64,000 bases of DNA from Escherichia coli (GCF_044324785.1 NZ_CP172127.1); one strand, 5' to 3'. Numbered from the stretch's first letter, positions 1,185 through 63,865 are shown. Program-made: numbers and translations. The notes: generated by a model from the letters alone, not told the origin.

Positions 1185-1508
1185 TTAGAGAAAGACAGGG
1201 AAGGCGGAATGATGGCACTGATATGACAAAGTGAATTCCGTATTCAAACATAAGGAACCCGCAAAGAGGCTACAGTTGCCTACTGGCTGACCAAAGGGGA
1301 TAGCGTGGGTATAGCCTTCCTGCTGGCATGCGCGATCGGCGATCCCGCGACTGACATAACGATCGGTACGGGCATGCTGCAAAAAAGCCTGATCATAAAC
1401 CAACCGAACAATACCTGTTGCCGCGTCAACTTCGCCCACATGAGCCTGGCGAGTTACTGTGCACCCCGCCAGCGTTATTAATGAAAGAGTCAGAATCAGA
1501 AGTCTCAT
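1185..1508 (-). CDS. yecR: Lipoprotein YecR
   Basis: ORF track, 107 aa, lipobox LAGC near N-terminus; synteny. Confidence 0.85.
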   Translation of the reverse strand: MRLLILTLSLITLAGCTVTRQAHVGEVDAATGIVRLVYDQAFLQHARTDRYVSRGIADRACQQEGYTHAIPFGQPVGNCSLFAGSLCLNTEFTLSYQCHHSAFPVFL

Positions 1509-1769
1509 GGTCCAGCCAGAAGAGTAAAAGAAAGCAGTATTTTACGCGTTACAGCGCTGCGACAATGGCCGGAAAAGACGCCTGGCAGGCGCTATTTCTT
1601 GCCATCTGTATGTGTCAGAAAGGGGGGGCTGCTTTTTGATTATCATTTTTATAACATTAAAGAGGTATTTGTGTGATTTGCATCACATAAAGATTGATTT
1701 TTGTGATGGTTGTCATATTATAAGCGCAAAGACAATAACACCTGCATAACAAATAGTCGGAGTGCCGCG

Positions 1770-57783: not shown

Positions 57784-58188
<405 letters not shown>

Positions 58189-58514
58189 TGGCCTCTGATA
58201 ATTCGATTGACCGTCGGCGGATGCGGCGCGAGTGCCTGGTCCGCCCTACAAGGCACCTCAATCGGAGGCCTGAGAAGACGCAACAGCGTCGCATCGGGCA
58301 ATCAGCATCAAACAATGCCACTCAAAACGTCAAATTACTTTCACCTAAAATACCCTTATCACCTGATATACAGTGAACACCTTACCTGGCGCGAATTTCT
58401 TTGAATAACGGCCTGCCGACCCGCTTATTTGCGCATCTTTTGTCTCGATATACATTTTCTGACATCCTCATCCGCTATGCTACAGGCACTAAAAATGGTT
58501 ATTGAGGAGCAAAT

Positions 58515-59174
58515 ATGGCTAACTGGTTAAATCAACTGCAATCCCTGCTTGGGCAAAGCAGTTCTTCTACCTCCTCGTCTGCGGATCAGGGATTGGGCAA
58601 ACTTTTAGTGCCTGGCGCATTAGGCGGACTGGCTGGGCTGCTGGTCGCAAATAAATCAGCACGTAAACTTCTTACGAAATATGGCACCAACGCGTTGCTG
58701 GTTGGCGGCGGAGCGGTAGCGGGTACGGTGCTGTGGAATAAATACAAAGATAAAATTCGCGCGGCGCATCAGGACGAACCGCAGTTTGGCGTGCAGAGTA
58801 CGCCGCTGGATGAGCGTACGAAACGTTTGATCCTTGCGCTGGTCTTTGCCGCTAAAAGTGATGGTCATATTGATGCCAAAGAACGTGCGGCAATCGACCA
58901 GCAATTGCGTGAAGCCGGCGTGGAAGAGCAGGGGCGTGTACTCATTGAGCAGGCAATCGAACAACCGCTGGATCCACAACGCCTGGCTACCGGGGTCCGC
59001 AATGAAGAAGAGGCGTTGGAAATCTATTTCCTGAGCTGCGCGGCTATTGATATTGACCATTTTATGGAACGCAGTTACCTGAATGCACTGGGTGACGCGC
59101 TGAAAATCCCGCAGGATGTTCGTGAAGGCATTGAACGCGATCTCGAACAGCAAAAACGCACTTTGGCGGAATAA
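58515..59174 (+). CDS. yebE: DUF533-family inner membrane protein YebE
   Basis: ORF track 219 aa. Confidence 0.9.
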
Positions 59175-59182
59175 TTCCGCTC

Positions 59183-59219
59183 TCTGGATAGCCTGAAGTT
59201 GACGATTTCGGGCTATCCA
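59183..59219. terminator. Hairpin immediately downstream of yebE (tctggatagcc ... ggctatccaga), no clear T-tract
   Basis: 11-bp inverted repeat read from sequence. Confidence 0.45.
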
Positions 59220-59280
59220 GAACCGCACAGCCATTTGAGCAGGCTGATTTTCTCTGTCTGCATAACATTCGATATCCGCG

Positions 59281-59500
59281 CCATTACCTGTCATCATGTG
59301 ACTGCTCCCCGCCCTGTCGGGCGAGGCTTCCCACTTCTTAAGCCGCAACCGTCTGTGTGACGGATTTACGCTGGCCTCCATGGGCAGAAACGACGAGTCC
59401 CGCCGCTTGTAATTCCAGTATGCCCTTGCGTTTGATGTTGAGCGCCGCGTTGATATCGCGGTCATGTTCAACTCCACACTCTGGACACTGCCAGATGCGC
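59281..59500 (-). ncRNA. Predicted TnpB guide RNA (omegaRNA / right-end RNA): scaffold overlapping the tnpB 3' end and right-end hairpin, guide from adjacent flank
   Basis: Inferred from the established architecture of TnpB systems (omegaRNA encoded at the tnpB 3' end through the IS right end); not directly visible as a gene; boundaries are approximate. Confidence 0.3.
59307..59326. repeat. Subterminal imperfect hairpin at the tnpB-proximal IS end (ccccgccc tgtc gggcgagg)
   Basis: 5-bp GC stem + mismatch + 2 bp; same motif and orientation as the hairpin at the other end. Confidence 0.7.
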
Positions 59501-60507
59501 TTATGTAATGGCATCTCCGACATTTTGTGACCGCAGCAGTGGCAGGTCTTCGAACTGGCGAACCATTGATCCAGTTTCACCAGATGCACACCTTTCTCTG
59601 TTGCTTTGTATTCCAGTTTTGTGATGAATCCAGACCATCCAGCATCGCCTATCGCACGAGCCAGATGGTGATTTTTCATCATATTTGCCGTTTTCAATGT
59701 CTCGACAATTACCGCTTGGTTTTCGTCAACAATTGCGCGAGATAACTTGTGCTGGAAATCGGCACGGGCACTAGCTACCCGTTCGTGAACGGCTGCAAGT
59801 TGTATTCTGGCTTTGCGCCTGTTTGCGCTCCCTTTTTTCTTACGGGACAGTGCTTTCTGCTTCCGGCGCAGGTTGCGACTTGCATTGATTAGGTGGCGGG
59901 GACTGGCAATTTTATTGCCGTCCGATTTGATGACAAAATGCGCCAGCCCCATATCCAGCCCTGTCACATTTGATATCAGTGCGGGCTTTGCCGGCGCTTC
60001 CATCCCGTCGTCACAGAGTAACGACGCGTAGTATTTCCCGGTTGCGCTGCGGCTCAACGTGATACTTTTCAGCATTCCCGTAATTTCACGATGTAAACGC
60101 GCTTCAATCGGCAAGATTTTCGGTATTTTTATCGCACCATCAAGGACTTTTATGCCAACACAATGATAGCTCGATTGTCTGCCGTGTTTACTTTTAAAGG
60201 TTGGTTTACCTGCTTTCAGTTTCGGATTGAAAAAGTTAGAAAAAGCCACGTCGAGGTTAATTACCGCCTGCTGCAACGCAATAGAATCATATTCTTTAAG
60301 CCATCCATACCGGCGGGATTTCTTCGCCACTGCAAGCAGTGGTTTGAGGTCTTTACGCGGGTTTAAATTTACGCGGTGCCGCTGGTAAGAATGTTTCTTG
60401 ATATGCAGAGCTTTGTTGTACGCAAAACGCACTGCACCGAACTGGGCGTTGATAAATTCAGCCTGTTCTGGTGTCGGGTAGATGCGTACTTTTGTTGCTC
60501 TTAACAT
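59338..60507 (-). CDS. tnpB: TnpB (IS605 OrfB-family RNA-guided endonuclease; RuvC-like + zinc finger)
   Basis: ORF track 389 aa; N-terminus MLRATKVRIYPTPEQ is classic TnpB; RuvC-I D in GLDMGL, RuvC-II E in VIVETL, zinc finger CHCCGH...CPECG, RuvC-III DRDINAALNI; ATG start. Confidence 0.92.
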   Translation of the reverse strand: MLRATKVRIYPTPEQAEFINAQFGAVRFAYNKALHIKKHSYQRHRVNLNPRKDLKPLLAVAKKSRRYGWLKEYDSIALQQAVINLDVAFSNFFNPKLKAGKPTFKSKHGRQSSYHCVGIKVLDGAIKIPKILPIEARLHREITGMLKSITLSRSATGKYYASLLCDDGMEAPAKPALISNVTGLDMGLAHFVIKSDGNKIASPRHLINASRNLRRKQKALSRKKKGSANRRKARIQLAAVHERVASARADFQHKLSRAIVDENQAVIVETLKTANMMKNHHLARAIGDAGWSGFITKLEYKATEKGVHLVKLDQWFASSKTCHCCGHKMSEMPLHKRIWQCPECGVEHDRDINAALNIKRKGILELQAAGLVVSAHGGQRKSVTQTVAA

Positions 60508-60529
60508 AATCAGCGCTCATTGATATAAT
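60501..60529 (+). promoter_or_regulatory. Putative sigma70 promoter for tnpA (-35 TTAACA at 60501..60506, 17-nt spacer, extended -10 TGaTATAAT at 60521..60529)
   Basis: Consensus -10 TATAAT with upstream TG; followed by SD aggtgg at 60549..60554 and a TTG start at 60564. Confidence 0.45.
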
Positions 60530-60535
60530 GCTTTT

Positions 60536-60563
60536 ATTTTAACACTTTAGGTGGATATATCAA
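60536..60563 (-). promoter_or_regulatory. Putative sigma70 promoter for tnpB (-35 TTGATA at 60558..60563, 16-nt spacer, -10 TAAAAT at 60536..60541, minus strand)
   Basis: Hexamers read from sequence; no experimental support. Confidence 0.4.
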
Positions 60564-60989
60564 TTGAGTAATCATGATGATTTACTGGCGGGATTTCTCC
60601 GCAAACGACACAGTGTCAGTAAGCTGGTTGTGCACCTTATTTTTACGACAAAGTATCGACGCAAACTATTCGACAGTCAGATGATCGCTCAGTTGCGTGA
60701 GGCTTTTGGCTCCGCTGCGGCAAAGCTTGAATGCGAAATTATTGAGATGGACGGGGAGCCAGACCATGTACACCTGCTGGTTGCCTACCCGCCAAAACTG
60801 GCGGTCAGTGTGATGGTCAATAATTTAAAATCGGTATCATCACGTTTGCTACGCCAGCAGAACGCGCATTTACGTATGCAGAGTAAAACGGGGCTTTTGT
60901 GGTCGAGATCGTACTTTGTCTGTAGCACCGGAGAGGCAACGATTGAAACGCTCAGAGCCTACGTTCAGAGTCAGTCAACACCTGATTGA
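60564..60989 (+). CDS. tnpA: TnpA (IS200-type Y1 HUH single-strand transposase)
   Basis: ORF track 141 aa; HUH motif HVHLL; C-terminal catalytic Tyr region SRSYFVCSTG; conserved TTKYRR; probable TTG start preceded by AGGTGG. Confidence 0.9.
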   Translation: MSNHDDLLAGFLRKRHSVSKLVVHLIFTTKYRRKLFDSQMIAQLREAFGSAAAKLECEIIEMDGEPDHVHLLVAYPPKLAVSVMVNNLKSVSSRLLRQQNAHLRMQSKTGLLWSRSYFVCSTGEATIETLRAYVQSQSTPD

Positions 60990-60994
60990 TCTTT

Positions 60995-61011
60995 AAAGCC
61001 CTGCGGGCTTT
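60995..61011 (+). terminator. Rho-independent terminator after tnpA (aaagccc tgc gggcttt + T)
   Basis: 7-bp stem, 3-nt loop, T-run; read from sequence. Confidence 0.6.
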
Positions 61012-61022
61012 TCGCCTTATAT

Positions 61023-61043
61023 CCCCGCCCGCATTGGGCGAGG
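61023..61043. repeat. Subterminal imperfect hairpin at the tnpA-proximal IS end (ccccgccc gcatt gggcgagg)
   Basis: Same stem sequence and mismatch position as the hairpin at 59307..59326. Confidence 0.7.
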
Positions 61044-61118
61044 GTTTACGGCGTTTTTCGCTAAGCAATGACTACCCTGTTTCGCTTGCATCTCCGGTGA
61101 GTTTTGCCACCCTTATAA

Positions 61119-63865
<2,747 letters not shown>

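Follow-up and report, generated by a model that had tools for sequence, protein, structure and literature searches.

Does the 3' end of a tnpB gene lodged between yebE and ptrB of Escherichia coli specify the guide RNA (omegaRNA) of the protein that the gene encodes, and if so, what would that RNA target? The question is raised by a 64,000-nt stretch of DNA (GCF_044324785.1, NZ_CP172127.1), analysed over its whole length and called the window here. Its gene order is the chromosomal purT-yebG-yebF-yebE, followed by the insertion and ptrB; yebE ends at 59174 and ptrB starts at 61146, and two divergent open reading frames, tnpB (59338..60507, minus strand) and tnpA (60564..60989, plus strand), lie between them. 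In RefSeq, identical copies of tnpB are labelled 'RNA-guided endonuclease InsQ/TnpB family protein' and identical copies of tnpA 'IS200/IS605-like element ISEc46 family transposase'. A literature search for ISEc46 yielded mobile-element inventories only, and found no functional work on it. Elsewhere in this neighbourhood, the yebF-yebE gap (58170..58318) has two minus-strand matches to naRNA4, which score 28 and 25 bits, under the threshold of 59.5, and resemble REP-type palindromic repeats.

The borders of the insertion were obtained by comparison with an empty site (L001). In a base-by-base alignment, the window is the same as the empty site up to 59297 and again from 61061. Together with the RefSeq annotation, this defines a complete ISEc46-family insertion sequence (IS200/IS605, divergent tnpA and tnpB) of 1763 bp at 59298..61060, on the minus strand. 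The insertion neither added nor removed target bases, and there is no target duplication. The empty yebE-ptrB site reads ...CTGTCATCAT|CTAAGCAATG..., or ...GTCATTGCTTAG|ATGATGACAGGTAATGGCGC... on the minus strand. Terminal inverted repeats are absent, subterminal hairpins are present on one strand and the insertion lies 3' of a fixed short sequence, as is characteristic of IS200/IS605 elements. The original prediction had set the right end near 59297 and had drawn the guide, as the reverse complement of 59281..59296, from the 16 nt of yebE-side flank. The end is indeed close to that position and the choice of flank stands; because the exact last base of the element is 59298, and not 59297, the guide shifts by one base to 59282..59297.

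The yebE-ptrB spacer is uninterrupted in most E. coli genomes. When complete E. coli genomes were searched with an 80-nt probe across the junction (coverage of at least 80%), 5025 of 5426 (~93%) carried the empty junction, and about 400 carry the insertion at this site. Over 59240..59297, the flank matches the empty allele of strain 8A at every base. Strain N3 (NZ_CP031609) is one carrier of the element. Copies of the element occur at several sites on chromosomes and plasmids, which argues for recent mobility. One plasmid copy matched the window as far as 61071, 11 nt past the end of the element, and read-through excision from an alternative site was considered. The plasmid flank is GCGTTAG|, so that only TTAG and chance similarity are common to the two, and the shared flank was discarded.

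Some further sequences related to the element were encountered. A 1960-bp contig filed under Collinsella sp. MAG (JAIJJM010000608.1) has the window's element at 99% identity between the same two E. coli flanks, on the yebE and the ptrB side; probably, E. coli DNA was mis-binned into this MAG. A 38-nt remnant of the right end (hairpin and tail, 100% identical) is found in many E. coli plasmids. In plasmid NZ_CP029181.1 it lies at 1501..1538, directly after the apparent end of another insertion sequence, the first gene of which starts ~60 nt from the remnant on the other strand, and a hok/gef gene follows ~300 nt downstream of the remnant. Just after yebE in the window, a perfect 10-bp inverted repeat (ctggatagcc ... 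ggctatccag) spans 59184..59220, ~78 nt past the right end in the predicted direction of guide RNA transcription; no T run follows it on either strand.

Relatives of the element were collected with TnpB in a scan of one genome per species, which returned 80 loci with 63-99% identity in Photorhabdus, Serratia, Rahnella, Pantoea, Idiomarina, Halomonas/Vreelandella, Vibrio, Shewanella and other hosts. The last 220 nt of tnpB and the downstream sequence were aligned for all loci, and the final alignment held 68 distinct sequences. Similarity ends abruptly after ...GAGCAGTCAC in every locus (~75 loci), and the flanks beyond are unrelated; in all 68 distinct relatives the terminal bases are (A/G)GTCAC, and no similarity remains past them. 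The sequence past the right end differs between insertions, as would be expected of a guide.

The tnpB stop and the subterminal hairpin of the original prediction were both located where it had placed them. The hairpin (ccccgccc-tgtc-gggcgagg; 59307..59326, minus strand), identified as an inverted repeat and recovered in the RNA consensus described below, is separated by 11 nt from the TAA stop at 59338..59340 and is a predicted single-stranded DNA binding site for TnpA. The two ends have similar hairpins on the minus strand, each with one T left unpaired (CC-T-CGCCC ... GGGCG-GG). The ptrB-side border lies 16-17 nt 5' of its hairpin, and the yebE-side border lies 9-10 nt 3' of its hairpin. 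In IS608, cleavage at the left takes place outside the element, 19 nt 5' of the left hairpin, and cleavage at the right takes place within it, 10 nt 3' of the right hairpin (PMC3201880). Since the hairpin-to-border spacings follow IS608, the minus strand was taken as the active 'top' strand, with the left end at 61060 and the 3' end of tnpB at the right end. The left end (60990..61060, minus strand; hairpin at 61023..61044) was delimited from the empty site, the flanks of relatives and this IS608-like geometry. That the insertion sequence has its right end on the side of the tnpB 3' end, as had been proposed, and not its left, which would have refuted the original prediction, is supported by the hairpin-border geometry and by the conservation of TTAG at the opposite end.

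TTAG (ctaa on the plus strand) adjoins the left end at 61061..61064. Among 55 distinct left flanks of relatives it was found in 54, the other having TTAA, and positions further out were unconstrained. The rule by which left flanks were detected demanded TTAG or TTAA and had set six cases aside; all six of these also carry TTAG, so that all 61 flanks have one or other tetranucleotide and there is no counter-example. TTAG is assigned as the TnpA target. At the right end, a 9-nt tail (AGCAGUCAC; 59298..59306, minus strand) separates the hairpin from the guide, is nearly invariant in the 68 relatives and contains the predicted right-end cleavage site TCAC (59301-59298). The 33-nt sequence of the right end is unique in the 64-kb window, where 0 matches were expected. 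Under the positional pairing rule of the IS608 structures, which agrees in outline with PMC3201880, TTAG would fit the tetranucleotide AAAC 5' of the left hairpin and TCAC would fit GAAG 5' of the right hairpin.

The ends of several relatives are rearranged. One locus (L077, 1921..2010) has a tandem duplication of the left end, with two copies of GCAAAACCCGCGTAAACCCTCGCCCAATCGGGCGGGGATATAAGC 43 nt apart. The left-end hairpin is broken in its loop in six loci (L008, L014, L021, L025, L027 and L035), with unrelated sequence starting GAGGGTGTCGCAAAAG next to the break. The right-end hairpin of L045 (3551..3667) is likewise broken in the loop, and the same GAGGGTGTCGCAAAAG foreign sequence follows. 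As this foreign sequence recurs at different loci, it suggests either that another element inserts into the hairpins of these seven loci or that their ends are recombinant.

The unpaired T, the cleavage spacing and the tetranucleotide 5' of the hairpin foot all follow IS608 rules. The conserved sequence and structure might therefore serve TnpA only, as single-stranded DNA signals of the right end (the hairpin, the guide tetranucleotide GAAG and TCAC) with no function as RNA; the right-end hairpin and tail can be explained in this way without invoking any RNA.

A consensus RNA structure was computed with RNAalifold from the 68 distinct sequences. It comprises 34 pairs in five helices (P1-P5) within a predicted omegaRNA scaffold of ~111 nt at 59298..59408 on the minus strand (-111..-1, where position -1 is 59298), which extends over the last 23 codons of tnpB, its stop and the right end. 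It was compared with a control in which the pairing partners were slid by 1-3 columns. In the 68 relatives, 98.0% of cells were paired, compared with 34-52% after sliding. Two-sided changes were found at 19 of the 34 pairs, in 217 cells, compared with 18-47 cells after sliding. None of 500 shuffles was as good as the observed pairing. Having been derived from the same alignment, the structure has an advantage in the sliding control. Even so, many pairs are represented by several Watson-Crick types; the variants of one helix, for example, include CCGUC/GACGG, CUGGC/GCCAG, CUCGAU/AUCGAG, CCGGU/ACCGG and CUUGU/ACAAG.

P1 (59408-59402 with 59394-59388; -111..-105 with -97..-91) shows two-sided changes at four of its seven pairs and encloses a nearly invariant 7-nt loop, GGGACUC (59401-59395; -104..-98). 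P2 is a long-range helix of CCCAU with GUGGG (59384-59380 with 59334-59330; -87..-83 with -37..-33) that encloses P3 and P4; 99.7% of its cells are paired, and its variants among relatives include CCCA/UGGG, CUUA/UAAG and CCAA/UUGG. P3 (59376-59370 with 59346-59341; -79..-73 with -49..-44) and P4 (59363-59359 with 59353-59349; -66..-62 with -56..-52; loop ACACA), both from the RNAalifold consensus, together have two-sided changes at 8 of 11 pairs. P5, from the same consensus, is the right-end hairpin (59326-59319 with 59314-59307; -29..-22 with -17..-10), with a GACA tetraloop at -21..-18. The tail (59306-59298; -9..-1) completes the scaffold. All of these elements are read on the minus strand.

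A candidate pseudoknot, also on the minus strand, would join GACU in the P1 loop to AGUC in the tail (59399-59396 with 59303-59300; -102..-99 with -6..-3). It is paired in 97% of cells, with two-sided changes at none of its pairs and a U-U mismatch at the second pair in five relatives. Both strands are nearly invariant, and the pseudoknot is therefore compatible with the alignment without proof from covariation.

Other candidate pairings were rejected. In a predicted helix further upstream (59513-59510 with 59424-59421), two-sided changes are confined to a single pair and the others vary on one side; with almost no covariation, this helix was left out of the RNA. A pairing of UCUGC (~59388-59384) with GCAG of the tail is lost in relatives that have CAAAGC or GAGAAG. 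An all-against-all scan of alignment columns for additional pseudoknots returned mainly isolated pairs of shared ancestry, and its one usable pair (176-193) extends P4. In a group of relatives from Halomonas, Vreelandella, Idiomarina and Aliidiomarina (L058, L063, L064, L066, L069-L073 and L076-L083), the loop of the right-end hairpin is 13-16 nt longer and contains an extra small hairpin (e.g., GUGGCGCUUUAGCGCUU).

Because TnpA would be reason enough for the right-end hairpin to be conserved, P5 by itself is no evidence for an RNA. Most of the covariation, however, is in P1-P4, which lie 44-111 nt inside the element, whereas a 45-nt right end is enough for a robust TnpA complex in IS608 (PMC3201880). 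P1-P4 moreover coincide with stems of the RNA that was solved with a homologous TnpB. A role confined to TnpA is consequently very improbable as an account of the whole conserved region.

The scaffold and the coding sequence overlap over the last 23 codons of tnpB, and three observations bear on whether the constraint there would be on RNA rather than on coding. Pairing is kept in this segment while the protein varies freely (...KSVTQTVAA, ...KSGSVPVAA, ...KPGHAPAAA). Third codon positions, with an entropy of 1.17 bits upstream, have only 0.81 bits within the overlap. In a clade from Shewanella, Vibrio, Idiomarina and Marinospirillum (L046, L049, L050 and L052-L056), a 1-nt deletion near -98 ends TnpB ~19 residues early (...AAGQSFLLMEAA), and P3 and P4 are kept with compensatory changes even though they are non-coding in that clade.

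A covariance model was then built from 57 relatives, with the window and every sequence at least 93% identical to it in this stretch excluded. In the 64-kb window it matched once, over 59412..59298 of the minus strand (126 bits, E ~9e-27); this match is full length and has its 3' end exactly at the border, 59298. The match and the uniqueness of the 33-nt right end put the feature far outside chance expectation. In the loci of the relatives, each match falls at the 3' end of the local tnpB match and none has a second one; most of these matches are expected by construction, since the model was built from those sequences. With the conserved structure and the match to the border, the proposed overlap of the RNA scaffold with the tnpB 3' end and with the element's right end was borne out.

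The search with covariance models of known omegaRNA families, suggested with the original prediction, was less productive: no Rfam family scored above threshold in permissive scans over 4 kb and over 271 nt. Two sub-threshold hits were the only ones, HgcC with 15.2 bits (threshold 50) and sot0042 with 11.7 bits (threshold 88), and they fall on the hairpin and tail, on the correct strand. Folding of the single sequence gave z = -1.6 for a stretch of 153 nt, which is uninformative, and it was for this reason that comparative analysis was needed.

A longer stretch of 233 nt does fold better than shuffles (z = -3.0), and the structure is located at the 3' end of a gene. Both would be expected if it were a stabiliser or terminator at the 3' terminus of tnpB mRNA with no guide function. 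Against this, a site scan found no terminator-like site there, and the last hairpin is followed by AGCAGUCAC and not by a U run. Nor would a stabiliser be expected to have a nearly invariant tail and P1 loop, or conservation that ends exactly at the border of the element. We regard this explanation as scarcely credible.

The preferred explanation for these observations is that 59298..59408 (minus strand) is the omegaRNA scaffold of the ISEc46-family TnpB and that 59282..59297 supplies its guide, and we consider this highly probable. Transcription, processing by TnpB, guide length, use of TTAG by TnpB and cleavage are assigned by analogy with the close homologue ISDra2. In ISDra2, the RNA is formed by the 3' end of tnpB and the right end, with ~16 nt of flank as the guide, and the motif beside the TnpB target is the same as the TnpA target (PMC8612924). 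The predicted guide, derived here from the border and the ISDra2 guide length, would be AUGAUGACAGGUAAUG (16 nt from the yebE-side flank, 59282..59297, minus strand; a 20-nt version would reach 59278), or, as DNA, ATGATGACAGGTAATG, the reverse complement of 59282..59297. The target-adjacent motif, which the original prediction had left open, is by the same analogy predicted to be 5'-TTAG, i.e., 61061..61064 on the minus strand.

The predicted target is therefore 5'-TTAG-ATGATGACAGGTAATG in the rejoined donor site. The guide matches the empty allele perfectly, and on the minus strand the empty site has TTAG directly 5' of the guide match (TTAG|ATGATGACAGGTAATGGCGC). This agrees with the earlier proposal that the natural target is the rejoined empty donor site. 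Where the element is present, TCAC, with two mismatches relative to TTAG, comes before the guide match. As TCAC and not TTAG precedes the match, the occupied site is predicted to be spared by its own nuclease.

In the proposed mechanism, transcription of tnpB, or transcription from an internal start, would run through the right end into the yebE-side flank. A promoter-like site upstream of tnpB (TTGATA-16-TAAAAT, 10/12 matches, with TG; 60536..60563, minus strand), found by consensus scan only, is a possible source of the transcript that would yield the omegaRNA. Two strong promoter-like sites, based on consensus matching only, point in opposite directions in the 56-bp spacer between tnpA and tnpB (60501..60563); each has TG, and the matches number 11/12 for the plus-strand site and 10/12 for the minus-strand site. 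TnpB would bind the structured 3' part of the transcript and trim it to a scaffold of ~111-116 nt with ~16 nt of flank. P1-P5 would act as ISDra2 stems 1, 2, 3a, 3b and 4, and the short pseudoknot would join the P1 loop to the bases before the guide. Excision of the minus ('top') strand by TnpA would restore the donor joint, ...GCTTAG|ATGATGACAGGTAATG..., where the TnpB-RNA complex would read TTAG beside the target, pair its guide with the flank and cut. Recombination with a sister copy after the cut would then reinstate the element (homing).

This mechanism depends on both proteins being active. The 389-residue TnpB, a predicted RNA-guided endonuclease by its open reading frame, PDB match and protein families (NCBIfam guided_TnpB, 342 bits, in agreement with Pfam), aligns over its full length to ISDra2 TnpB in the PDB (E 3.6e-74). 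The RuvC triad is kept, with D185, E269 and D351 opposite D191, E278 and D361 of ISDra2 TnpB, and both CxxC pairs of the zinc finger are present (C322/C325/C341/C344). TnpA is a Y1 (HUH) transposase of 141 residues with a TTG start. It scores 142 bits against NCBIfam transpos_IS200 (cut-off 55), and its HUH motif (H68/H70), Y133 and Q137 were placed in its sequence by analogy with IS608. In one survey, the ISEc46 TnpA is called 'truncated in the N terminal' (PMC9956272). Read from the TTG start that RefSeq uses, the protein spans positions 3-125 of the 126-position profile and contains the HUH motif, Y133 and Q137, and for this reason TnpA is regarded, from its sequence, as intact; the TTG start may be what lies behind the label of truncation.

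It might nevertheless be supposed that the RNA is made and bound and that TnpB does not cut, either because it is an RNA-guided repressor or regulator or because this copy is functionally dead. TldR proteins, domesticated nuclease-dead derivatives of TnpB, reportedly use the same kind of RNA, and an N-terminally truncated TnpA, as labelled in the survey (PMC9956272), would weaken a homing cycle. The intact RuvC triad and zinc finger speak against a non-cutting TnpB, as does the presence of the gene within a complete element that has both ends. The extent of the TTG-start TnpA, with its HUH and tyrosine motifs, and the recent mobility implied by copies at several chromosomal and plasmid sites point the same way. 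A non-cutting TnpB is accordingly judged improbable, and an omegaRNA that directs cleavage is preferred.

Most of the Photorhabdus relatives have no tnpA. In these loci (L013-L035 and others), the left end lies just upstream of tnpB (~146 nt), as in IS1341-type derivatives. The relatives are multicopy per genome, with eight of the returned loci coming from P. thracensis alone, and all of those without tnpA retain TTAG and the RNA structure.

The guide matches the empty allele of ~93% of complete E. coli genomes, and therefore an active complex would cut incoming empty alleles. The chromosomal element could on this basis act as an allele-specific gene drive or recombination barrier within E. 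coli, using the 4-nt TTAG; we think this unlikely. If it were true, empty alleles that enter by conjugation or transduction would be cut, and then converted, or the recombinant blocked.

The sequence at 59298..59408 corresponds to the guide RNA that a catalogued insertion sequence would be expected to have, an ordinary and well-supported example of a known system, and general knowledge of TnpB systems is unchanged by it. In the literature searched, neither a specific description of an ISEc46 omegaRNA nor a TnpB with a TTAG motif was found (the matches to TTAG were 'TtAgo'), and no Rfam family contains the RNA. The result provides a concrete and testable guide, target and target-adjacent motif for a TnpB that is native to E. 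coli, so that homing, excision and interference can be assayed in the native host without heterologous expression. The RNA is near enough to the solved ISDra2 RNA for structure-guided mutagenesis, and because no Rfam family detects this clade, the 68-sequence covariation alignment could seed a curated RNA family.

Among known systems, the ends resemble those of IS608 of Helicobacter pylori (PMC3201880), which shares the subterminal hairpins with an unpaired T on one strand, insertion 3' of a tetranucleotide without duplication and right cleavage ~10 nt 3' of the hairpin foot. The two differ in target (TTAG here, TTAC in IS608), in right cleavage sequence (TCAC and TCAA) and in left spacing (16-17 nt and 19 nt). 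The RNA shares its strand and its place relative to tnpB with HgcC (RF00062) and sot0042 (RF02656), archaeal RNAs linked to tnpB 3' ends (PMC4615843), and also a terminal hairpin, CCnCGCCC-NNNN-GGGCGnGG, followed by GAG.AG.UCA. The scores are far under the thresholds, however, and the last hairpin and tail alone align convincingly, so the resemblance does not amount to membership of either Rfam family.

The closest counterpart is ISDra2 of Deinococcus radiodurans (PDB 8exa, 8h1j), the TnpB of which is a full-length homologue with identical catalytic residues, and the RNA likewise overlaps the tnpB 3' end and the right end, with the guide, predicted in our case, coming from the flank. The ISDra2 scaffold is 116 nt long, with stem 1 at -116..-111 with -91..-86, stem 2 at -84..-81 with -35..-32, stem 3a at -77..-71 with -48..-42, stem 3b in the stretch enclosed by 3a, and stem 4 closed by a tetraloop at -20..-17 (PMC10097598). 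P1 is the analogue of stem 1, and P2, P3, P4 and P5 lie 1-3 nt from stems 2, 3a, 3b and 4, respectively; the tetraloop is at -21..-18 here. The candidate pseudoknot (-102..-99 with -6..-3) would correspond to that of ISDra2 at -105..-103 with -5..-3 (PMC10097598). The present element differs in having TTAG (4 nt) rather than TTGAT, a tnpA that is divergent from tnpB where the two genes partly overlap in ISDra2, and a stem 1 loop of 7 nt rather than 19 nt. The guide, pseudoknot and last stem of TnpB RNA correspond to parts of the Cas12f guide RNA (PMC10097598), and by extension the same correspondence would hold for ISEc46, albeit with a single natural transcript of a transposon end in place of a single-guide RNA (sgRNA) and a CRISPR array.
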